Source of the DNA: Chloroflexota bacterium
GTDB taxonomy: Bacteria; Chloroflexota; UBA11872; VXOZ01
Length of the DNA stretch: 64,000 nucleotides
Direction: 5' to 3'
Assembly: GCA_965261635.1 (NCBI GenBank)
Contig: OZ253463.1
Location: 13,089-77,088, forward strand
Shown here: positions 8,569-30,176 of the stretch, piece after piece
Numbering within the stretch: position 1 is the first letter of the stretch
How the letters are laid out: each line of letters begins with the position of its first letter
Position numbers and translations under genes: made by a program
The notes under the pieces: model-generated
The model's database searches: none
Told to the model about the DNA's origin: nothing
What the model saw: the letters and a program-made list of their open reading frames with translations, nothing else

Positions 8569-9531
8569 CTAGTTGCCCTCTTTCGTCACCACGTCGATCA
8601 GCGCTTGGATGTAGCCGTTCGCAAAGGCGCGGCCCCGGTGGCCCCACGTGGAATCGCCGTCGGTCTGCGGCACGTGGTCGTCGATGAAGAAACCGTCGAA
8701 GCCGACCTCATGGTAGATTTGCATTGTCTTGTGCATGTCCACGTAGCCGGTATTGATGAACTCTTCCTGGAACTTCGGCACAGGACTTGAGACGTTGCGG
8801 AAGTGCACGTAGAGAATCTTCTTGCGCTCGCCAAAGTAGCGGATCATCTCGTAGATGTCCTCGCCCTGCATCTCGGCAAACGTGCCTTGGCAGAACTCGA
8901 CGGCGTTACAGTCGGATGGGTAAATTTCGATGAGGCGCTTATAAGAGTCGAAATTGCGGAAGAGCAGGGGAATTCCGCCAAGCCTTTCCATCGGCGGGTC
9001 GCAGGGATGGATGCCCAGGCGGATGCCTTCTTCCTCGGCAATGGGTGTGATGAGCTTGATCCAGTATTCGAGATTCTGCCAAACCTCCTCTTCGCTATAC
9101 TCGCGCCCATGGGAGATCGGCTTCTGCTCGGCCTCGGCGTAGTCGAATGCCGTCGCTACGGCTCCGCAACGGATCTCCGCGGGTGTGGTGCGCCAGACGT
9201 GGGATGGCATCCAATGATAGCCAAAGATGGGAATGCCCGCCCGTGCCATGTTGCGTATGGTGTAGACCATGTTCTCGATCTGCTCGTCGCGGCGCGGGCC
9301 GCCCAGCATCACGTCGTCGTAGAAGGAGACCGGCACGTTTTCGAGCGCAGCGAGCTTCAGCCCGTACTGCTCGATGTCCTTGCGAAGCTTCACGAGGTCG
9401 TCGAGTTCCCAGCGCCCGTTATCGCTTGGCAGATTCGCAGTGTTGAGTAGCACGTCCGTCGCGCCAAATTGCGCTGCGAATTGCAGATACTCCGGTAACG
9501 GATCACGGAATTGACCGAACCCTACTCTCAT
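8569..9531 (-). CDS. uxuA: mannonate dehydratase family protein
   Basis: GIHPCDPP, FCQG, YVHFRNV, DDHVP, AFANGYIQAL. Confidence 0.8.
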   Translation of the reverse strand: MRVGFGQFRDPLPEYLQFAAQFGATDVLLNTANLPSDNGRWELDDLVKLRKDIEQYGLKLAALENVPVSFYDDVMLGGPRRDEQIENMVYTIRNMARAGIPIFGYHWMPSHVWRTTPAEIRCGAVATAFDYAEAEQKPISHGREYSEEEVWQNLEYWIKLITPIAEEEGIRLGIHPCDPPMERLGGIPLLFRNFDSYKRLIEIYPSDCNAVEFCQGTFAEMQGEDIYEMIRYFGERKKILYVHFRNVSSPVPKFQEEFINTGYVDMHKTMQIYHEVGFDGFFIDDHVPQTDGDSTWGHRGRAFANGYIQALIDVVTKEGN

Positions 9532-20604: not shown

Positions 20605-22686
20605 ATGAAGGCGTATGCGACGAGTTCAATTCGTAATGTTGGGCTCTTCTCACATGTAGGCGCGGGCAAGACCTCTCTTGCGGAAGCGATGTTGTTTACT
20701 ACCGGTGCAGTCAATCGTCTTGGTTCCGTGGACAACGGCAGCACGGTGTCAGACTACGATCCAGACGAGGTCAAGCGCCAAATCTCTCTCAATCTTTCAC
20801 TCATTCCCGTGGAATCGGGCGACGCCAAGATCAATCTGCTCGACACGCCGGGCTACGCGGACTTTTCCGGAGAGGTAGCCAGCGCGCTCCACGTATCGGA
20901 TGGCGCAGTGCTGGTGGTGGATGTGTCAAGCGGTGTGCAAGTAGGCACTGAGGAGTCATGGGAACGGATTACGGCAAATGAGCTTCCTAAGTTGATATTT
21001 GTCAATCGTATGGATCGCGAGAATGCCGACTACTTTGCCACCTTGGAGAGCCTACAGGAGTTCTTTGGCAGCAGTGTGGCGCCACTCCACGTTCCCATCG
21101 GTTCCCAAGACGACTTCAAGGGCGTGGTAGACCTCTTGGCGAACACTGCCTATCTCTACACCGAAAACGAAATAACCGAGTCCCCCGTTCCCGACGATCT
21201 TGAAGATACTGTCGAGGAGTACCGGCAGACGCTCATCGAGAATGTGGTGGAACTCGACGACGCACTGACGGAGAAGTATCTTGAAGGCGAGGATATCACC
21301 GCCGAGGAACTTCAGGCCGCGGTCCACGAAGGTGTGCTCACCGGCCAACTAACACCGGTGCTGTGCGGCGCCGCAACCCGCAACGTCGGTGTGCAGGCGC
21401 TCATCGACGCCATCATCCGCTATCTCCCGTCACCGGCGGAGACTGCTGCCGCTACCGCAACCCATGCGGGTGAAGAGCAGGAGATTCCCGCTGATTCGGA
21501 TGGACCGCTTGCGGCGTTTGTCTACAAGACCCTGGGTGATCCTTACGTTGGCAAACTATCCTTTATTCGAGTCTACTCCGGCACGCTGCGCTCGGACTCC
21601 CGAGTGTGGAACGTCAATGCTGAATCTGAGGAGCGTATCGGTCAGTTGCTCTTTGTGCGCGGTCGCGAACAGGCACCGGCAGAGCACATCGCTGCCGGTG
21701 ATATGGGCGCGGTGGCAAAGCTGACTCAGACACTCACCAGCCACACGCTGGGCGAGCGCAAGCAACCGCTGGCGTTGCCGGCCGTCACGTTTCCACAGTG
21801 GCTCTTCACCGCCGCCATCGAGCCGACATCGAAGGAAGACTTGGAAAAACTCAGCAGTGCGCTGGCCCGCGTCACGGAGGAAGACCCCAGCCTACACGTC
21901 GAGCGGCAGCCGATCACGGGACAAACGCTCCTCTCCGGCATCGGGGAAACCCACATCAACGTTGCCCTGGAGCGTATGAAACGTAAATTTGGCGCCGACG
22001 TTAAGACGATCCCCGTGAAAGTACCGTATAAGGAAACGATCACCAAGACCGCAGCGGCGGAGGGCCGCTTTGTGCGCCAGACCGGCGGCCACGGACAATA
22101 CGCAGTCTGCAACATCGAGATCGAGCCCACGGCAAGAGGGGAGGGCTTCGAGTTCGTGGACAAGATCTTCGGCGGTTCGATCTCGGCCCCGTTCCGCGAA
22201 GCGGTGCACAAGGGTGTCCGCGAATCGATGAAAGAGGGCACGCTCGCCAGTGGCGAAGTGGTAGACCTGCGCGTGAGGCTGGTAGACGGCAAGGAACATA
22301 CGGTCGATTCCTCCGACCTAGCATTTCAGATTGCCGGCTCCATGGCGCTCAAGGAGGCCATGGACAGGGCGAGACCGGTCTTGTTGGAGCCGATCTTGCA
22401 GGTGCGGGTACGCGTGCCGGAAGACCGCATGGGCGACGTTATCGGCGACCTCACCAGCCGCCGCGCCAAGGTACACAGCATGGACATGGTGTCTCCCGGC
22501 ACGATGGAAATCCAGGCGGAAGTTCCCCAGGCAGAGGTGCTGCGCTACGCCACCGACCTGCGCTCGCTCACCCAGGGACGCGCTACCTTTTTTTCTGAGT
22601 TCATAGGCTACGAGCAGGTACCTGCCAGCACGCAGGAACAGGTGGTTGAAGCGCACAAGCGGGAGAAGGAAGAAGCCTCCTCGTAG
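20605..22686 (+). CDS. fusA: elongation factor G paralogue (EF-G2-like)
   Basis: SHVGAGKTS, DTPG, NRMD, RQTGGHGQY, VDSSDLAF, LRSLTQG; not in an rpsL-rpsG-tuf context. Confidence 0.85.
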   Translation: MKAYATSSIRNVGLFSHVGAGKTSLAEAMLFTTGAVNRLGSVDNGSTVSDYDPDEVKRQISLNLSLIPVESGDAKINLLDTPGYADFSGEVASALHVSDGAVLVVDVSSGVQVGTEESWERITANELPKLIFVNRMDRENADYFATLESLQEFFGSSVAPLHVPIGSQDDFKGVVDLLANTAYLYTENEITESPVPDDLEDTVEEYRQTLIENVVELDDALTEKYLEGEDITAEELQAAVHEGVLTGQLTPVLCGAATRNVGVQALIDAIIRYLPSPAETAAATATHAGEEQEIPADSDGPLAAFVYKTLGDPYVGKLSFIRVYSGTLRSDSRVWNVNAESEERIGQLLFVRGREQAPAEHIAAGDMGAVAKLTQTLTSHTLGERKQPLALPAVTFPQWLFTAAIEPTSKEDLEKLSSALARVTEEDPSLHVERQPITGQTLLSGIGETHINVALERMKRKFGADVKTIPVKVPYKETITKTAAAEGRFVRQTGGHGQYAVCNIEIEPTARGEGFEFVDKIFGGSISAPFREAVHKGVRESMKEGTLASGEVVDLRVRLVDGKEHTVDSSDLAFQIAGSMALKEAMDRARPVLLEPILQVRVRVPEDRMGDVIGDLTSRRAKVHSMDMVSPGTMEIQAEVPQAEVLRYATDLRSLTQGRATFFSEFIGYEQVPASTQEQVVEAHKREKEEASS

Positions 22687-22983
22687 ATCCTTAAGCATTT
22701 GACACGCGCTGTGCCACCAGCGCAAAACGGCAACCAACTCCCTGGGAGGCCCGTACCACGTGCGGGGCATGCTATACACATCCCCCAGGCCGACGAGCGA
22801 CAAGAGTCTCTCTCTTTGGGAGTCCATCGAAAAACCCTCGTCAGAAGCAAATGACTAACTCCCTCTCCTTGGGGAGAGTGCCGGGGTGAGGGGAAATCTT
22901 CACTGTTCCAGCCGGAATCCGCGTGTTCGTCAAAGTCTTGAAAAGATCTTCCGAGAGAGTGTCACTACTTGTGGAGGCAGAGC

Positions 22984-23304
22984 ATGAGACCGGTTAACGT
23001 CGCGCCGATTCTTGCGGAAGATTCGCTCTTTCGCATTGTTGCCGGCACAGCGCAGAGTCAGGTCGGCATATTGGTGCTGGGCCCAGGTGAGAAGACCGGC
23101 GGCCTGCACGCCAGCGACCACCCGCATTCCGACCAAGTGGTCTACATCGTTTCAGGAAACGGCGAGGCGACAGTCCGCGACCAAACAGCGCCCCTCGCCC
23201 CAGGCGACGTGCTCATCATCGAAGCCGGCGACCCCCACGAACTCCGCTGCACCGGCGACGAACCCCTACGCACGCTGAATGTCTACGCCCCAGCCGCGTA
23301 TTAG
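22984..23304 (+). CDS. cupin-domain protein
   Basis: HPHSDQVVYIVSG, GDVLIIEAGDPHEL, LNVYAP. Confidence 0.8.
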   Translation: MRPVNVAPILAEDSLFRIVAGTAQSQVGILVLGPGEKTGGLHASDHPHSDQVVYIVSGNGEATVRDQTAPLAPGDVLIIEAGDPHELRCTGDEPLRTLNVYAPAAY

Positions 23305-23525
23305 ATTGCAGCGCAATAGCGGAAAACCCAGCAGGATGTTGACTCTCCTCGCTTATCAGTGCGAGGACTCAAATTGCTGAGCCAATCCAGACAGAATTAG
23401 CGCAGTGCCTTCAATCCAAATGCCGGAGCAGGACAATAGAACCCATTGCTGTGGTAAACCCAGTGTGTTTCTTGAAGGCATTTCGCTATCGAATGGGATT
23501 CTAATCTAGCTTACAATCGTAACGG

Positions 23526-25169
23526 ATGGTTCAAAGCAATTATGGGATTGCTGTGGAGTGTGGTTCAATGAATGGAAGCACAACACGCGACACGTCAGCG
23601 ATTATGCGACGGGTCAAATCGCGCGACACGGCACCAGAGATTGCTATCAGAAAAGCTCTTTGGTTGCAGGGGATACGGTATCGACTGCACGTGCAAGGCC
23701 TACCAGGCAAACCGGACTTGGCGCTACTCAAGAAGCGAATTGCAGTCTTCATTGACGGTGACTTCTGGCATGGAGGACAATGGCGAAAACGTAATCTTAC
23801 GGCGCTTCACGAGCAGTTTCGGGCCACCTCGACGAAAAGCTACTGGATGAGAAAGATCAGGCGCAATATGGATCGAGACGCAAGAACCACGGCCTCTCTA
23901 TTGGAAGAGGGCTGGACTGTCTTGCGGCTTTGGGAGAGTGAGATCAAGGATGATCTAACCGGATCAGTTGAGACGGTCGTAGATGTGTGCCGAAACGGGG
24001 CTGAACCATCGAACTTGGCCCTTCTGCCGCAACGAACCGTCGCTGAATTCTTTGCGGGCATGGGGCTTGTGCGTTTGGGGCTTGAGCGTCAAGGATGGTC
24101 GGTCAAGTATGCTAACGATATTGCCCCAAAGAAAGCGGAGATGTATACGGCACAATTTGGGGATACTGCCGAGTGTTTGCAGGTCGGCGACATACACGAG
24201 GTTGACTCCGGGAAATTGCCGACAGTAACACTCGCTACCGCCTCATTCCCATGCAATGACCTGTCACTAGCAGGTGCGAGAAAAGGCCTCGCAGGCAAGA
24301 AGTCTTCAGCGTTTTGGGGATTCGTACGCGTCTTGAAAGACATGGGAGATCGGAAGCCGCCTTTAGTTCTTATTGAGAATGTGCCTGGTTTCTTGACATC
24401 GCACCAAGGCGAGGACTTTAGGCAAGCGCTCGCAGCACTCAATAGACTAGGGTATGCTGTTGATTCGTTTGTAGTAGATGCGTCTCACTTTGTTCCTCAG
24501 AGCCGCGCACGTCTGTTTGTGGTGGGTCAGTTGTGGAAAGAACGCCAGAAGCAAGAGGCTAGTCTGCTCCAAGACTCGGCCATAATCACTGCGCGGCCAA
24601 AACAGTTGCTCTCGTTTATCGCAGCGCATCCTGAAATATCGTGGAAACTTCGACCTCTACCAGCATTGCCCCGACGAGCACAAGACCTTGAAGCGGTTTT
24701 GGAAAAGCTTTCTGACGACGCTCCAGAATGGTGGAGTGACAAAAGGGCAACCTACTTACTAAACCAAATGAGCGAGCGTCACCGGGCGATAGCAGACCGC
24801 ATGATTGGCGATGATTGTTGGTCATATGGAACGGTTTTCCGACGGGTGCGCTATGGCCGATCCATGGCGGAACTGCGTACCGATGGAATTGCAGGCTGTT
24901 TGCGGACCACGCTCGGTGGGAGCGGTCGACAAATTCTCTTCAAGGCTGGCTATGGGCGCTATTTCGCACGATTGCTGACACCAAGAGAATGCGCTCGACT
25001 CATGGGAGCGGATGATTTCACCATTGACGTACCACAAAACCAAGCGCTTCACGCATTTGGGGACGCCGTGTGTGTGTCAGTGATTGAGTGGATTGCCGAG
25101 CACTATTTTAATCCAGTAGTCAATGAACTTATCCGCGGAAATCCCCTACGGCTAGCCCTAGAACCATGA
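23526..25169 (+). CDS. Vsr endonuclease / C5-cytosine methyltransferase fusion
   Basis: N-half IMRRVKSRDTAPE, LPGKPD, FIDGDFWHG, LRLWESE; C-half EFFAGMG, SFPCND, IENV, QSRARLF, FGDAVC; single continuous frame. Confidence 0.88.
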   Translation: MVQSNYGIAVECGSMNGSTTRDTSAIMRRVKSRDTAPEIAIRKALWLQGIRYRLHVQGLPGKPDLALLKKRIAVFIDGDFWHGGQWRKRNLTALHEQFRATSTKSYWMRKIRRNMDRDARTTASLLEEGWTVLRLWESEIKDDLTGSVETVVDVCRNGAEPSNLALLPQRTVAEFFAGMGLVRLGLERQGWSVKYANDIAPKKAEMYTAQFGDTAECLQVGDIHEVDSGKLPTVTLATASFPCNDLSLAGARKGLAGKKSSAFWGFVRVLKDMGDRKPPLVLIENVPGFLTSHQGEDFRQALAALNRLGYAVDSFVVDASHFVPQSRARLFVVGQLWKERQKQEASLLQDSAIITARPKQLLSFIAAHPEISWKLRPLPALPRRAQDLEAVLEKLSDDAPEWWSDKRATYLLNQMSERHRAIADRMIGDDCWSYGTVFRRVRYGRSMAELRTDGIAGCLRTTLGGSGRQILFKAGYGRYFARLLTPRECARLMGADDFTIDVPQNQALHAFGDAVCVSVIEWIAEHYFNPVVNELIRGNPLRLALEP

Positions 25170-26140
25170 CAAGTGCCAACTCCCATGAGTCTGCCCTCGC
25201 TGCCATAAAGGCATGGCATAACGATCTTCGCAACTATCCGGGTGGGAAAGCGCGAGGAAGCATCGCAGCGGCATTGGTAACGGTTGAGCACCTTAGAGAG
25301 AACTACATACTTAGCATTGACAATCATATTGCAGAAGGAAGAGCACAGGTTCGTGGGCTTTCGCCTGGAAGTGTTGCAAAGATTCTCGCGCGCTACGGGG
25401 AGACGAGAAAGTACCTAGCTGAAGGCGGAAGAACCAATCGAGGGTCACGACGCGCGGTGGAAGATCTCCTAGAGTCGCTGAAGCCTCTAGCTTTAGAGAA
25501 TTTGCCACACATGGAACGAAACGAGGTCCTCAATGCCGTGCAGATGTTTCTCGTCGAGCGCGTCGTGGAATACTTCAACAGCAGGCGTCTGGCGCCTCCG
25601 TACGATCCAGCGGCGAGCACTTGGCATTCTATCAATCAGATTCTGCATGAGGCAAAGGAATCAGGCAAGTCTGGGCCGGTGGCACAGCATCTTGTGGGAG
25701 CGAAACTGCAATTGCGTTTTCCAAAACTGAATATTCCCAATAATCCCGCGAGCGCTGCTGACCAGCAAACGGGTCGCGACGGCGACTTCCAGATTAGAGA
25801 CACCGCATTCCACGTAACAGTTGCCCCATCTAGAGACAACCTGTTCGACAGAGTCAAAGAGAACATCCAGCATGGCCTACGTGTCTATGTCATCGTTCCT
25901 GACGATAAAGTGGCCTTGGCTCGGGGTTACGCTGAAGAGCAACTTCTTAGTCAGTCCTTTCAGATTGCGGTGTGTGCCATTGAGGACTTTGTGGCACAAA
26001 ACATAGATGAACTGTCTCTTTTTGCGAAGGGCCAACTTTTGACAGGTTTCAAGGCGCTCCTTCATGAATTTAACCGGCGTGTTGACGAGGTAGAATCCGA
26101 TAAGTCCGTGCTCATTGAAATCCCTGCGACTCTGCAATAA
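25166..26140 (+). CDS. DUF4928-family putative restriction endonuclease
   Basis: EGGRTNRG, AQHLVGAKLQLRFP, ADQQTGRDGDF, FHVTVAP; ATGA overlap with the MTase. Confidence 0.7.
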   Translation: MTSANSHESALAAIKAWHNDLRNYPGGKARGSIAAALVTVEHLRENYILSIDNHIAEGRAQVRGLSPGSVAKILARYGETRKYLAEGGRTNRGSRRAVEDLLESLKPLALENLPHMERNEVLNAVQMFLVERVVEYFNSRRLAPPYDPAASTWHSINQILHEAKESGKSGPVAQHLVGAKLQLRFPKLNIPNNPASAADQQTGRDGDFQIRDTAFHVTVAPSRDNLFDRVKENIQHGLRVYVIVPDDKVALARGYAEEQLLSQSFQIAVCAIEDFVAQNIDELSLFAKGQLLTGFKALLHEFNRRVDEVESDKSVLIEIPATLQ

Positions 26141-26192
26141 TTGCTAGCAAGTATTTCGGCTTCGTGCGAGTTGGCAGCGTAGGATTGGCAGA

Positions 26193-26963
26193 TTGACTGA
26201 TACCATAAAGCGCATTGTGTGCCTCGCCAACTCACGCAAGGAGGGCGACCGCTGCATCGCGGGCAAAGAACTCTTGGCAGATGGACGGCCCGGCGCATGG
26301 GTGCGGCCCGTCAGCGACCGAGGGGATGAAGCAGTTAGTTCATTCGAGCGGCAGTACCGGGACCACAGCGAGCCGCGCGTGCTGGACGTTATCGACGTGC
26401 CGGTGCTTGAGGAGCGGCCAAACACGTACCAGTCGGAAAACTGGCTGCTTGACCCACATCCTGCTCATCCGCCCGTCTTTTGGAGTAAAGTGTGCCGCGT
26501 CACCCTGGATAACTTACCACAGTTCGCCGACCCGGCGGGCCCACTATGGATTAACGGACACAGCGGCAGCAATGGACAGAACGACAGAATCCCGCTCTAT
26601 CTTGCCAATGCCCTTGATAGTTCGCTGCGTCTCATCCAGGTTGACCGGCTGGAACTGTCCACGGCTAAGGCAGAATCCAAGCTGAAAGTGCAGGGGCGCT
26701 TCCTGTACAAAGTGCAGGGACGATTCCGGTATGATGGAGTAGAGTATCGGCTGAGCGTCACCGATCCCATCTATGAGCACGCGTACGGAGAACTGCCCAA
26801 CACCAGCTATGCGCTTGACACCTGCTTTCTTACCATTAGTCTCGGCGGGGCGCATAAAGGCTTTGCCTATAAACTCATCGCCGCTATCATTGCACCATCG
26901 GAGCTAACCACAGCGGACACGCCAATTGAGAACACAGCGCAGATTCCGCTGTTCACCCTCTAA
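26193..26963 (+). CDS. dual OB-fold domain protein, copy 1
   Basis: KRIVCLANSRK...RCIAG, WVRPVS, YQSENW, SSLRLI, YRLSVTDP, ISLG, YKLIAAII. Confidence 0.7.
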   Translation: MTDTIKRIVCLANSRKEGDRCIAGKELLADGRPGAWVRPVSDRGDEAVSSFERQYRDHSEPRVLDVIDVPVLEERPNTYQSENWLLDPHPAHPPVFWSKVCRVTLDNLPQFADPAGPLWINGHSGSNGQNDRIPLYLANALDSSLRLIQVDRLELSTAKAESKLKVQGRFLYKVQGRFRYDGVEYRLSVTDPIYEHAYGELPNTSYALDTCFLTISLGGAHKGFAYKLIAAIIAPSELTTADTPIENTAQIPLFTL

Positions 26964-27012
26964 CATATCGCGTTGGGTAGTCGCGTCGGAGCACTACGGG
27001 TAAGTTGCTGCC

Positions 27013-27699
27013 ATGGTAGACAACATGACAAAGCGCATTGTGTGCCTCGCCAACTCACGCAAAGAGGGTGACCGATGCATCGCCGGCATAGAACTGATGG
27101 AGGATGAAAGCCCCGGCGGGTGGGTGCGGCCCGTCAGCGACCGCGAAGATGAAGCGGTCAATGAAAGCGAGCGGCAGTACGAAGATGGGGATGAGCCGCG
27201 CGTGCTTGATGTTGTCGATGTGCCGCTGCTCAAGGCACGCCCGAAGGGCTACCAGCAGGAAAACTGGCTGCTGGATCCGAGCCAACGTTGGAAGCGAATT
27301 CACCAAATTGGGCCGGATGCACTACAGGATTTTGCTGAACCGGCTGAGCCGCTCTGGGTTAATGGCTACCACACGAATCACGGGCGGAACGATAGGGTGC
27401 CGCTTGACCCCGCCAAGTCGCTGGATAGTTCGTTACGACTTATACGCGTTAGCGCGCTGGAGCTCGACGTGTTTGCACCCAGGGTAGACGTTGGTGACTT
27501 TAAGCGGCGGATCAAGGGCCGGTTACAATATACTGGTGAGGAGTATCGGCTTTGGGTCACCGATCCTGTCTATGAAGAAATCTACTTGAACCGGCCGAAC
27601 AATTCCTATGCTCTGGGCAATTGTTTCCTTACGGTGAGTCTGGGCGAGCCTTACCAGGGCCACGCTTATAAGCTCATCGCCGCCATCATTGAGCTTTAG
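27013..27699 (+). CDS. dual OB-fold domain protein, copy 2
   Basis: Same motifs as copy 1; clear paralogue. Confidence 0.72.
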   Translation: MVDNMTKRIVCLANSRKEGDRCIAGIELMEDESPGGWVRPVSDREDEAVNESERQYEDGDEPRVLDVVDVPLLKARPKGYQQENWLLDPSQRWKRIHQIGPDALQDFAEPAEPLWVNGYHTNHGRNDRVPLDPAKSLDSSLRLIRVSALELDVFAPRVDVGDFKRRIKGRLQYTGEEYRLWVTDPVYEEIYLNRPNNSYALGNCFLTVSLGEPYQGHAYKLIAAIIEL

Positions 27700-27713
27700 T
27701 GGAGAAACATAAC

Positions 27714-28349
27714 GTGAGTGCAAAGCGCCATTCAGTGTTCACCATCGGCCATTCTAATCACGATTCCGATGAATTCTTGGCGCTGCTGCGGCAGCATGGC
27801 GTGAATGTGGTGGTGGACGTCCGTTCAGCGCCGTACAGCCGCTACCTACCCCACTTCAACAAGGAAGTCTTGCAAGCAACGTTGGGCAACGCCGGCATTG
27901 ACTATGCCTTTCTGGGCAAGGAGCTTGGCGGCCAACCGGGGGACCGCGCCTGCTACGACGCCGACGGGCGCATCATGTATGACAAGCTAGCGGAAACCGC
28001 TGCCTTCAGCAACGGCATTGAGTACGTCGTGCACAACGCCTCCGCGTCCCGCATCGCCTTGACGTGTAGCGAAAAAGAGCCGCTAGACTGCCACCGCACG
28101 TTGCTGATCAGCCAGGTACTTGTGAAGCGCGGTGTTGCCGTGGCGCATATTCGCGCAGACGGACACCTGGAGAGTCACGACGACGCTATGAACCGCTTGC
28201 TCGACTCATTCGAACTGCCGTACAACGGTGATCTCTTCCGCTCCCGTGAGGCGGTAATTGATGACGCCGTCGCGCGCCGGGCGCAGCGGGTCGGCGCGCG
28301 CTTGCGAGATCCGTCCGCGGGCGGCGCTGATTGGGGGCGTGCGCTCTGA
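27714..28349 (+). CDS. DUF488-family protein
   Basis: FTIGHSNH, VDVRSAPYS, ELGG, CSEKEPLDCHR; GTG start after ggaga. Confidence 0.85.
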   Translation: MSAKRHSVFTIGHSNHDSDEFLALLRQHGVNVVVDVRSAPYSRYLPHFNKEVLQATLGNAGIDYAFLGKELGGQPGDRACYDADGRIMYDKLAETAAFSNGIEYVVHNASASRIALTCSEKEPLDCHRTLLISQVLVKRGVAVAHIRADGHLESHDDAMNRLLDSFELPYNGDLFRSREAVIDDAVARRAQRVGARLRDPSAGGADWGRAL

Positions 28350-28816
28350 AACTTTACACCATCGGCTTTACCAAGAAGACGGCCGCAACGTTCTTTGACC
28401 TGCTCAGGACATCCGGCGCGAAACGCGTGGTGGACGTGCGGTTGCACAATACCTCGCAACTGTCGCGTTTTGCTCATGGCGACGACCTGCCGTATCTTCT
28501 ACAGAGGATTTGCCGGATGCAGTATATTCATGCGCCGGATTTTGCGCCCGCCAAGGCCCTGCTGGATGGCTACCGCGGCGGCGACATCGACTGGGAAGTC
28601 TACGAACGCGATTTCCTTGCCCTGCTGGACGAACGGCGCATCTTTGCAGAAGGCATACGCCCCACTGGAGGAAGACGCATCACGAAGAGATTAAAAGCTA
28701 CCATCGCCAACAGTTGCCTCCTGTGCAGCGAGCATGAACCCGATCACTGCCACCGTCGGCTGGTGGCGGAGTTATTCCAACGACAGTGGGGCGACGTTGA
28801 GATTCAGCACCTATAG
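28346..28816 (+). CDS. DUF488-family protein, second subtype
   Basis: KLYTIGFTKK, VDVRLHNTSQL, CLLCSEHEPDHCHRRL; start uncertain (CTG 28346 or TTG 28331). Confidence 0.8.
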   Translation: MKLYTIGFTKKTAATFFDLLRTSGAKRVVDVRLHNTSQLSRFAHGDDLPYLLQRICRMQYIHAPDFAPAKALLDGYRGGDIDWEVYERDFLALLDERRIFAEGIRPTGGRRITKRLKATIANSCLLCSEHEPDHCHRRLVAELFQRQWGDVEIQHL

Positions 28817-28841
28817 ACTCATCTGAAAGTCAAGAGACCCT

Positions 28842-29483
28842 ATGAATCCTATGGACCTTCTCCATGACCTCGTAGACTGGGTTCTCGCCTGGGCGGACTC
28901 GCCGTTTGGTGGGTTGGCCCTTTTTGTGCTGTCGGCTGCGGAGTCGATTATCTTTCCGATTCCGCCGGACCCCTTGCTGATTGCGTTGGGCGTGGGCAAA
29001 CCGAGCTTTGCCTTGGTCTTTGCCGCCATCTGTCTCGCCGGTTCGCTCCTCGGCGCCAGCGTCGGCTACGTCATTGGTATGTGGGGCGGGCGCCCGGTGG
29101 TGGACCGCCTCTTCTCGCAGGAGAAGATTCAGTTCGTCGAACAGAAATACCAGCGCTACGACGTGTGGGCGATTCTTATCGCCGCGCTCACACCAATACC
29201 CTATAAGGTGTTCACTATCACGGCCGGCATGTTTCGGTTGCACTTCGGCCGCTTCATGCTGGCGTCGCTGATCGGACGCGGCGCGCGCTTCTTCGCCGTG
29301 GGCCTACTGATCGCCTTCTTCGGCGAACCGATTGCGGCGTTCATCGATGAGTACCTTGACATTCTGTTTATTGTCTTTATAATTCTGCTTGTCGGCGGTT
29401 TCTTCGTCATCAAGCTAATGACGCGTTCGGCGAAGCCGCCGGGGCCGGATGGGGCGACGACTACGGAGGAGGCCGCTCCGTAA
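28842..29483 (+). CDS. YqaA/DedA (VTT) membrane protein
   Basis: AESIIFPIPPD, TPIPYKVFTITAG, GRGARFF. Confidence 0.9.
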   Translation: MNPMDLLHDLVDWVLAWADSPFGGLALFVLSAAESIIFPIPPDPLLIALGVGKPSFALVFAAICLAGSLLGASVGYVIGMWGGRPVVDRLFSQEKIQFVEQKYQRYDVWAILIAALTPIPYKVFTITAGMFRLHFGRFMLASLIGRGARFFAVGLLIAFFGEPIAAFIDEYLDILFIVFIILLVGGFFVIKLMTRSAKPPGPDGATTTEEAAP

Positions 29484-29765
29484 TCTAGTAACATAGGGCG
29501 TGCATCGCTAGGGGTTGGGTGTATGATTGCGGTAGGCACCGACGGCCCAAGAGTGCAACCGTACGCGCGATGGAAGTTGGCAAAGGGCTCCTCGCCGTCA
29601 CTCCGGCGGAAGCCGGAGTCTAGGGGAAAAGGCAACGGATGGATTCCCGCCCCGTATCACGTACAGGGCAAGCTTTCGCGGGAATGACGGAAACTAGGAT
29701 GCTCTGTCTTTACTAGCACACGAGAAATAGAGACACTAACAGAAGCGACTACCGAGCGTAGAGCT

Positions 29766-30176
29766 ATGCAAACGTACTATGACGTTCTCGGCGTCTCAGA
29801 GGATGCCGAATCCGAGGAGATCGAAGCGGCATTCCGGCGCGCGCTCGCGTTCGCACAGTCTGAAGCGGATGAAGCCGAGACCGCTGACGTCGCCGCCCGC
29901 ATGCGGATGTTAGCGGAAGCCTATGAGGTTCTTTCCAATCCCGCCTACCGCGCCGCCTACGATCTAAAGCGGGAGCAAAAGGAACCGTTTCCGGTACCGA
30001 AGCCAATCGCGGGATCAAAGCTCTTCCGCGCGTTGAAAGCGAGCGGATCCACCCTCGTCAAGGATGTGAAGGAACAGTACGAGAGCGATCCCACCATCAA
30101 GGAAGACTTTGACCGTTCCATCCAGCTTGGTCGCAAAGTCGCCCGTGCCGCACGCTTTCTCCGCTTCTTGCGGTAG
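29766..30176 (+). CDS. small DnaJ-domain protein lacking HPD
   Basis: YYDVLGV, EAYEVLSNP..RAAYD; no HPD motif. Confidence 0.7.
   Translation: MQTYYDVLGVSEDAESEEIEAAFRRALAFAQSEADEAETADVAARMRMLAEAYEVLSNPAYRAAYDLKREQKEPFPVPKPIAGSKLFRALKASGSTLVKDVKEQYESDPTIKEDFDRSIQLGRKVARAARFLRFLR

Follow-up and report, generated by a model that had tools for sequence, protein, structure and literature searches.

A mobile m5C restriction-modification cassette beside a PDC-M45-type DuOB/DUF488 trio in a Chloroflexota genome: probably two independent neighbouring units

The window analysed here is a stretch of 64,000 nucleotides from the genome of a Chloroflexota bacterium, in which six + strand open reading frames (ORFs), termed g1 to g6, occupy positions 23526-28816. 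A first-pass annotation, made from the letters alone, had read them as one defence-like operon that couples a restriction-modification (R-M) pair to dual-OB and DUF488 proteins. The ORFs of the window were compared with Pfam and NCBIfam at their curated cut-offs and with the PADLOC models, and these matches bear out the proposed gene identities. The gene g1 (23526..25169) encodes a 547-residue Vsr-Dcm fusion (Pfam Vsr 3.3e-25, DNA_methylase 2.6e-46), and g2 (25166..26140) a 324-residue DUF4928 protein (Pfam DUF4928 1.1e-87), the type II restriction endonuclease predicted to pair with g1. They are followed by two dual-OB genes: g3 or DuOBa (26193..26963, 256 residues; Pfam DuOB 3.1e-57, PADLOC PDC-M45A 5e-77), a lineage-specific extra paralogue, and g4 or DuOBb (27013..27699, 228 residues; Pfam DuOB 1.8e-68, PADLOC PDC-M45A 2.2e-89), the canonical dual-OB protein of a trio with the last two genes. 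These are g5 or DUF488B (27699..28349, 216 residues; Pfam DUF488 2e-24, PADLOC PDC-M45B 4.8e-74), a predicted cysteine-phosphatase-fold enzyme, and g6 or DUF488C (28331..28816, 161 residues; Pfam DUF488 4.1e-18, DUF488-N3a 4.3e-10, PADLOC PDC-M45C 4.4e-57), which belongs to the 'active DUF488-N3' subclade. No NCBIfam model matched g2-g6.

The six genes are tightly packed, with overlaps of 4 nt at g1/g2, 1 nt at g4/g5 and 19 nt at g5/g6, and gaps of 52 nt between g2 and g3, the largest, and 49 nt between g3 and g4. On the left lies a Cupin_2 gene (22969..23304, + strand; PF07883 3.8e-18), which is 82-97% identical across 11 loci with the same flanks described below and forms the conserved left border of a variable slot. 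It is separated from g1 by an AT-rich intergenic stretch (23305..23525; GC 0.475 vs 0.585 for the window) that marks the left edge of the R-M insert. On the right, a gene for a VTT-domain (DedA/YqaA-type) membrane protein (28842..29483, + strand; Pfam VTT_dom 1.7e-18), 85-98% identical in the same-site loci, starts 25 nt past g6. These flanks agree with the cupin and YqaA genes named by the first-pass annotation, YqaA being a member of the VTT_dom family. Since EF-G, cupin, VTT and DnaJ-like genes are likewise on the + strand and the VTT gene begins so close to g6, orientation and spacing do not delimit a six-gene operon; what stands of that label is the row of six co-oriented, closely spaced genes. 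The R-M half is indeed richer in AT: GC is 0.524 for g1 and 0.515 for g2, and GC at third codon positions (GC3) is 0.513 and 0.520, compared to 0.64-0.73 for g3-g6 and 0.69-0.75 for the EF-G, cupin, VTT and DnaJ-like genes. The codon composition of g1 and g2 is thus foreign to everything around them.

The two domains of g1, a Vsr (very-short-patch mismatch) endonuclease (approximately residues 22-142) and a C5-cytosine DNA methyltransferase (approximately residues 172-526), both score above curated thresholds. The Vsr domain reaches 119.2 bits with TIGR00632 (cut-off 97.85) and 88.2 bits with PF03852 (cut-off 27), and the methylase 169 bits with TIGR00675 (dcm; cut-off 100.65) and 159 bits with PF00145 (cut-off 22). 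In addition, g1 matches the PADLOC MTase_II model at 1e-114, and a sequence search of the PDB returned E. coli Vsr (PDB 1cw0, 1.8e-15) and M.HhaI (8.7e-25). The g2 protein matches the PADLOC REase_II model PDLC03543 at 1.5e-52 and is predicted to be the cognate restriction endonuclease of g1; a PDB search at E<=1 gave no solved relative of it, and no nuclease motif was identified in it. Going by family membership, the Dcm domain would methylate cytosine in its target and the DUF4928 protein would cut unmethylated targets, while the fused Vsr domain would nick the T:G mismatches that arise from deamination of 5-methylcytosine (m5C), offsetting the mutagenic cost of methylation. Homologues of DUF4928 occur on 25 plasmid records, and both of the two inspected records contain a Dcm+DUF4928 pair with the methylase first and the genes overlapping.

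Whole-genome searches of 17 species genomes of the genus, including that of the window (G000), found DuOB in 16 and DUF4928 in seven. Both occur in six genomes (G000, G008, G009, G010, G011 and G016), always adjacent; DuOB is present without DUF4928 in ten, one of which is only 69% complete, and DUF4928 without DuOB in one (G005). The order in G005 is VsrDcm-DUF4928-VTT-DnaJ, so that the R-M pair sits at the same site with VTT directly after it, and the surrounding 16 kb contain no DuOB, DUF488 or cupin match at E<=1e-3. The two halves are therefore not gained, kept and lost all together within the genus.

The same picture emerged from a wider set of loci, namely the best 80 of at least 583 DuOB loci that a scan with a 16-sequence DuOB alignment found in GTDB species genomes, which were searched by tblastn with the eight proteins of the window. 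Eleven of the 80, all from Chloroflexota metagenome-assembled genomes (by record title), lie at the same site between cupin and VTT genes, and the other 69 lie elsewhere. The Vsr-Dcm+DUF4928 pair is present in five same-site loci (L001, L002, L005, L008 and L048) and missing from six, DuOBa is present in seven, and presence of the R-M pair and of DuOBa shows all four combinations. Outside the site the pair was found in none of the 69 loci, where L035 and L044 alone gave Dcm-like matches, weak ones at a distance of over 5 kb. Identity to the window in its closest relative, L001, is 78% and 73% for the two R-M proteins, compared to 85-98% for the other six proteins. Altogether, the independent occurrence in the genus, the faster divergence, the plasmid-borne pairs and the GC3 contrast indicate that g1-g2 are an ordinary mobile type II m5C R-M cassette, apparently inserted in the variable slot between the cupin and DuOB genes, rather than an obligate partner of the trio. 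The cupin-DuOBa slot can also hold other genes: in three loci without R-M (L003:6261-6851, L006:6296-6886 and L009:6255-6782) it is filled by a DUF6338 gene (PF19865, down to 7.9e-41), whose L003 product has no PADLOC match at 1e-10.

These distributions bear directly on the proposal of the first-pass annotation that all six genes make up a single coupled system, whose DuOB/DUF488 arm would process or heal the ends made by the m5C R-M half, as a backup antiphage or self-repair arm. We now regard this proposal as quite unlikely, and the two modules do not appear to be obligately coupled, given that ten of the 17 genus genomes have DuOB without R-M and one the reverse, that the R-M pair is absent from all 69 loci elsewhere, has a foreign GC3 and travels alone on plasmids, and that L007 and L010 have the trio by itself, with housekeeping genes on both sides. 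In favour of coupling, the two units are adjacent and co-oriented in all six genus genomes that have both, and the 52-nt gap between g2 and g3 contains no predicted terminator, so that co-transcription and some functional interplay are possible. Moreover, the trio recurs within or beside other methylase-based systems, and the phage defence candidates (PDC) of PADLOC, to which it belongs, were defined by their position within BREX, DISARM and type I R-M systems (10.1101/2024.01.29.577857).

Promoter and terminator scans of 22600-29800 found five promoter-like sites against 3.5 expected and six terminator-like sites against 7.1 expected, nothing above the expectation from shuffled sequence, and the AT-rich stretch upstream of g1 gave no convincing promoter. 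Two studies supplied four metatranscriptome libraries, whose contigs were placed on 22900-29500; such contigs show presence and do not prove a single transcript, as DNA may be present in these libraries. Single contigs span g1/g2 (25104-25264), g3/g4 (26766-27423 and 26766-27704), g4/g5 (27432-27925) and g5/g6 (28280-28504 and 28216-28367), whereas no contig of the two studies bridges g2/g3, where uncovered parts prove nothing. Contigs of two RNA runs follow the cupin gene as far as 23297 and differ from the window beyond it, and one contig leaves the window sequence at 26207, which fits strains with different slot content. Elsewhere in the scanned region, a perfect 12/12 sigma-70-like promoter match (TTGACA, 16-nt spacer, TATAAT) lies at 29356-29383, within the 3' end of the VTT gene and about 380 nt upstream of the DnaJ-like gene.

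The second unit, g3-g6, turned out to be catalogued. The PADLOC-DB matches to PDC-M45A, B and C (4e-57 to 2e-89) place these genes in a listed phage defence candidate, with g3 and g4 as protein A, g5 as B and g6 as C, all present, adjacent and co-oriented. This trio, in which one DuOB gene is combined with two DUF488 paralogues, appears to be widely transferred and is strongly conserved, and it has an extra DuOB paralogue here. A full-text literature search found no paper naming PDC-M45, and the papers listed for DUF488, judged by titles and abstract openings, included no functional study of such a module, in line with the earlier remark that no experimental characterisation was known.

The two DuOB proteins share 58% identity, and the Pfam DuOB (PF22557) match covers positions 1-210 of the 210-position profile in both. 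The 16-sequence alignment has 56 invariant columns, including an N-terminal C-L-A-N-S-R-K...R-C stretch, and g3 retains all 56. A PDB sequence search with the DuOB profile at E<=1 gave no match beyond chance level. The AlphaFold2 model of g4 (predicted local distance difference test score, pLDDT, 92.3) has two OB barrels, and Foldseek matched it best to CST/CTC1, RPA, HIN-200 and POT1 (best E 4.5e-4). A VIA structure search, independent of Foldseek, matched residues 1-100 to the OB domains of SSB, RPA, PriB, CST and MCM (Z 6-7.8), and residues 105-228 to the OB region of BrxL (Z 6.3). The sequence identity to these structures is 5-13%, and the matches are middling in strength but mutually consistent. 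The model therefore suggests that DuOB is a tandem-OB protein that may bind single-stranded DNA (ssDNA).

The fusions of DuOB point in the same direction. Among 39 longer proteins with a DuOB domain, 24 are fused to a RecQ-type helicase, one of these also to a uracil-DNA glycosylase domain, and one is fused to a DEAD/Helicase_C_2 helicase, which argues for a DNA ligand, particularly single-stranded or forked DNA. Four others are fused to DUF488, which ties the two families physically. Permuted arrangements occur in two Chloroflexota genomes: DUF488-DUF488(N3a)-DuOB::RecQ with a complete RecQ helicase in a protein of 996 residues (L088:2082-6255, G053), and DUF488-DUF488-DuOB with DuOB fused to an NHL/beta-propeller region in a protein of 527 residues (L089:1439-4023, G129). 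A 393-residue open frame over the cupin and DuOB genes of one relative was considered as a further fusion and rejected, its translation being an out-of-frame, arginine-rich read-through.

A quick maximum-likelihood tree of 88 DuOB sequences with SH-aLRT (Shimodaira-Hasegawa approximate likelihood ratio test) support placed the eight DuOBa sequences in one clade (support 100) and 11 of the 12 DuOBb sequences in another (support 99), both nested in a 41-sequence Chloroflexota clade (support 99), within which the tree does not settle how the two are related. These separate supported clades indicate that DuOBa, whose orthologues occur in 11/17 genus genomes, is old and of single origin rather than a recent tandem copy. 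At the DuOBb position (8806-9477), the same-site relative L048 carries a copy that shares just 53% identity with g4 and lies outside the DuOBb clade of the genus, on a branch as long as 0.64.

Both DUF488 proteins, which share 29% identity, carry the C-x-E-x5-C-H-R motif that the first-pass annotation had pointed out: C123-x-E125-x5-C131-H-R133 in g5 (nt 28065-28097) and C132-x-E134-x5-C140-H-R142 in g6 (nt 28724-28756). It is kept in 74/74 readable DUF488B and 73/73 readable DUF488C orthologues, a count that leaves out two of each with a stop in the extended frame. A PDB sequence search with DUF488B gave no match at E<=1. The structural model of DUF488B (pLDDT 86.2) is similar over residues ~10-198 to cysteine phosphatases in a VIA search, including the dual-specificity phosphatase (DSP) domain of laforin (Z 9.2), KAP (8.7), SsoPTP (8.5) and TpbA (8.0). 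RNA 5'-phosphatases follow at Z 6.6-7.8, among them the baculovirus enzyme BVP (7.8), PIR1 and the triphosphatase domain of the human capping enzyme, and the N-domain of the tetrapyrrole methylase CbiL is also matched (Z 9.4). In the model, the strand 119-123 ends at C123 and the helix 132-143 begins with H132-R133, an arrangement like that of a phosphatase P-loop except that the loop is longer; protein tyrosine phosphatases have the loop C-x5-R, shorter than that of DUF488B. The modelled fold of DUF488B is thus cysteine-phosphatase-like, and the protein is predicted to be an enzyme. A complex prediction of DUF488B, DUF488C and DuOB scored 0.00 against a mark of 0.32, which counts neither for nor against binding.

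Variation among the DUF488 genes was seen at three places. The g6 of the window has a 12-residue insertion (approximately residues 111-122) that is common only to L003 among 20 aligned sequences. In L009 (8851-9696), the DUF488B gene aligns as two pieces about 115 nt apart, and in L010 (8744-9532) it has a 56-residue excess with an in-frame stop on extension; each may represent an insertion or a damaged copy.

Beyond the window, the order DuOB-DUF488B-DUF488C on one strand is found in 75/80 loci from many phyla (by record title), and the trio is 50-60% identical across phyla. The exceptions are L030, with divergent DUF488 genes on the other strand, L043, at a contig end, L071 and L076, with DuOB only, and L075, which lacks the C gene. 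Neighbouring ORFs of at least 100 residues were compared with Pfam, all those within about 4 kb for L001-L018 (135 ORFs), and for the 61 others the closest one to either side, with a single second neighbour added (118 ORFs). A defence, toxin-antitoxin or mobile-element neighbour was found in 34 of the 69 loci outside the site of the window, some of them methylation-based systems, which upholds the claim that these genes occur in conflict-type neighbourhoods; the other 35 adjoin metabolic or housekeeping genes or genes without annotation. For rough orientation, the prokaryotic Schlafen study counts 0.13-0.19 defence genes at a distance of up to 10 kb from two ribosomal protein genes (10.1101/2025.07.24.666596).

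A co-oriented Schlafen/AlbA_2 + HATPase_c_4 gene lies directly upstream in 13/69 loci (L036, L038, L040, L044, L047, L049, L050, L055, L058, L068, L071, L076 and L080). In seven loci (L024, L041, L051, L062, L063, L069 and L070), the trio is preceded by a DUF1156 methylase gene, followed by a HEPN_Swt1-DUF499 ATPase gene, or both. L062, L063 and L070 are the loci with both genes, at spacings of 10-29 nt, and the L063 pair scores 1543 bits with HmaB and 1165 bits with HmaC of PADLOC. Other restriction or defence neighbours occur in eight loci, namely a DEAD helicase with MZB (L016), a type IIG/ISP enzyme (L021), HEC-03B (7e-163; L025), GmrSD_N (L026), AAA_15/21 (L057), AAA_11/12 (L059), a type III methylase (L060) and HsdS with an Xre-MbcA antitoxin (L077). 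Toxin-antitoxin or mobile-element neighbours account for six more (L018, L028, L029, L032, L033 and L073).

DuOB was also found on 19 plasmid records, and no match at E<=1e-3 occurred among 50,697 phage records. On the small, mobilizable A. baumannii plasmid pB8300 (L087, 4001-5689), the order is DuOB-DUF488-DUF4326, in which the second DUF488 gene is replaced, with an adjacent RelE/ParE toxin pair. On a Rhodovastum plasmid (L086, 4989-10663), a run of short hypothetical genes precedes the trio, and downstream of it come a small gene for a zinc-finger protein and one of more than 9 kb related to SNF2. Within the phylum, DuOB is patchy, being present in 42/301 genomes and 25/166 genera (one unpublished genome, G270, included), and the DuOB tree mixes phyla.

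This distribution can be read in another way, namely that the trio is a housekeeping DNA/RNA repair module of the genus without an immune role, which acquired its defence neighbours elsewhere by horizontal transfer via variable regions. We give this a modest chance. Its occurrence at a single chromosomal site in 16/17 genomes of the genus and its host-like GC3 fit such a module, as do the 50-60% identity across phyla and the 56 invariant DuOB columns, which are atypical of fast-evolving sensors, the fusions to RecQ, once with a uracil-DNA glycosylase domain, and the 35/69 loci with only metabolic or unannotated neighbours. It is harder to reconcile with the patchiness in the phylum, the mixing of phyla in the DuOB tree, the 19 plasmid records, the 34/69 loci with defence, toxin-antitoxin or mobile-element neighbours, and the position of the trio inside Hma systems with gaps of 10-19 nt.

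A further alternative, raised by the Schlafen and HEPN genes beside it, is that the trio acts on RNA: tRNA or mRNA ends left by these RNases would be healed, or their repair blocked, within an abortive-infection type of immunity. The E-x4-E-x-K motif, described in the prokaryotic Schlafen study as the catalytic motif of these enzymes, which cleave tRNA and defend against phage (10.1101/2025.07.24.666596), is intact in all 13 Schlafen-type genes directly upstream of DuOB. Seven loci have the HEPN-fused DUF499 ATPase and/or its DUF1156 methylase partner beside the trio, and the fold matches of DUF488B to BVP, PIR1 and the capping-enzyme triphosphatase domain likewise suit an RNA substrate. Nevertheless, the fusion partners of DuOB are mostly RecQ-type DNA helicases (24/39), its OB-fold matches are mostly ssDNA binders, and the two Schlafen-type genes of the window's genome lie more than 500 kb away, so that we consider action on RNA improbable. 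Those two Schlafen/AlbA_2 genes, with open frames of 586 and 458 residues, were located at G000:C1:979423-979788 and G000:C1:589816-590160. In two Latescibacterota loci (L071:4309-6242 and L076:6673-8663), the Schlafen/AlbA_2-HATPase_c_4 gene is followed by DuOB and then by a PhyH gene on the other strand; since these loci have no DUF488 genes, DuOB can pair with a Schlafen-type protein alone.

We therefore favour, with fair confidence, a reading of the locus as two independent neighbouring units, a mobile m5C R-M cassette and a PDC-M45-type trio with an extra DuOB, the latter likely to function in ssDNA end processing. Nucleic-acid binding and end processing, as suggested by the first-pass annotation, fit the tandem-OB model, the RecQ-type fusions and the cysteine-phosphatase-like model of DUF488B. 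In the mechanism we envisage, DuOB would bind ssDNA at ends, gaps or forks and place the two cysteine-phosphatase-fold enzymes at the bound DNA, where the DUF488 pair might transfer phosphate or sugar-phosphate groups at the terminus in successive steps. Shown here are the gene identities, the independence of the two modules, and the recurrence, neighbourhoods, fusions and predicted folds of the trio; binding to ssDNA, catalysis at DNA ends, assembly into a complex and an antiphage function are inferred. As the trio elsewhere lies in nuclease- or methylase-based defence systems or joins RecQ through DuOB, it would be a portable DNA-end-processing accessory rather than the partner of one R-M system.

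Several observations weigh against this reading. Where both units are present in the genus they are always adjacent and co-oriented, across a short gap lacking a predicted terminator, and the trio adjoins other methylation-based systems as well, namely Hma in seven loci, the type IIG enzyme in L021, the type III methylase in L060 and the type I S subunit in L077, so that its tendency to adjoin restriction systems in general is real. Schlafen and HEPN proteins, encoded beside it, are RNases and fit an RNA substrate equally, and the fold matches are middling (Z <10; Foldseek E ~1e-3 to 1e-4). The neighbour tally has no matched control and reaches only to the nearest or second ORF in 61 loci, and the 80 loci are the best-scoring of a larger set and related to one another. 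No biochemical or phage data for any member were found in the literature.

A bolder reading, which we put forward as a long shot, is that DuOB is a prokaryotic ssDNA platform that recruits interchangeable effectors, such as the DUF488 pair, a Schlafen-type tRNase or a fused RecQ, to phage replication intermediates or resected breaks. It would then be a bacterial counterpart of the vertebrate RPA-SLFN11 axis. Were this so, the trio could turn the breaks made by any restriction system in the neighbouring slot into non-religatable ends, in a loose and exchangeable partnership of the sort envisaged by the first-pass annotation.

The R-M half of the locus is routine, while the trio occurs widely (of 3451 candidates, 3229 are DuOB homologues at E<=0.001, in addition to the genomic loci above), strongly conserved and already listed as a defence candidate, and no paper was found that assigns it an activity. 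What is new here is a PDC-M45 member in which DuOB is duplicated and which is fixed in a single genus next to an insertion slot; the kind of candidate was already known. The genus offers a natural presence/absence matrix, in which the R-M pair occurs both with and without the trio and the number of DuOB genes is one or two. The range of biochemical hypotheses is narrowed by the fusions to RecQ and DUF488, by the Schlafen-type neighbours and by the embedding in Hma systems, and ssDNA binding with cysteine-dependent end processing leads among them. If a new DNA-end chemistry were involved, it would be relevant to phage-defence biology and to the development of enzyme tools; if the proteins were ordinary repair enzymes, PDC-M45 should leave the defence catalogues.

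Compared with known systems, the R-M half resembles the Dcm+DUF4928 cassettes on Enterobacter and Pseudomonas plasmids, in which the methylase gene likewise directly precedes and overlaps the DUF4928 gene, whose product is 34-35% identical to g2. They differ in that the plasmid methylase has only about 380 residues in the two inspected cassettes and is therefore too short for the N-terminal Vsr domain that g1 carries.

The g3-g6 genes share with PADLOC PDC-M45 the order A-B-C on one strand, but the window has two A-type genes. The PDC candidates comprise 145 single- or multi-gene sets, taken from genes that lie inside BREX, DISARM or type I R-M loci, and their source calls them untested; the name PDC-M45 does not occur in its main text (10.1101/2024.01.29.577857). 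A further parallel is offered by the Hma (helicase, methylase, ATPase) systems, whose components are called 'type-1 BR' (type-1 BREX-related) in another paper (PMC12839542). In seven related loci the same trio is flanked on one or both sides by genes for an HmaB-type DUF1156 methylase and an HmaC-type HEPN-DUF499 ATPase, the 'embedded' cassette architecture described in the PDC source. By contrast, the trio of the window has no Hma neighbour, lies between the cupin and VTT flanks and adjoins a two-gene type II R-M, after it rather than inside it; embedding is seen only in the relatives. For the six proteins of the window, no Hma model was among the best 25 PADLOC matches at E<=0.01 (for g1, the best 25 of 51).

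At the level of protein architecture, the two OB barrels of the DuOB model resemble the tandem-OB ssDNA binders RPA70, CST/CTC1, POT1 and HIN-200, its best structural matches. DuOB differs from them in its low sequence identity (5-13%), in Z scores of 6-7.8 and in the near-invariant N-terminal C-L-A-N-S-R-K...R-C motif. A further parallel is the RapZ-C/DUF488/DUF4326 clade of the rhodanese-phosphatase superfamily, which Burroughs and Aravind reportedly predicted in 2023 to process DNA ends in conflict systems, and the names DuOB and DUF488-N3 are said to come from the same work. Several features of the present locus and its relatives fit this clade, including the Pfam names DuOB and 'Active DUF488-N3 subclade', the phosphatase- and tetrapyrrole-methylase-like fold of the DUF488B model, and the plasmid-borne DuOB-DUF488-DUF4326 arrangement.

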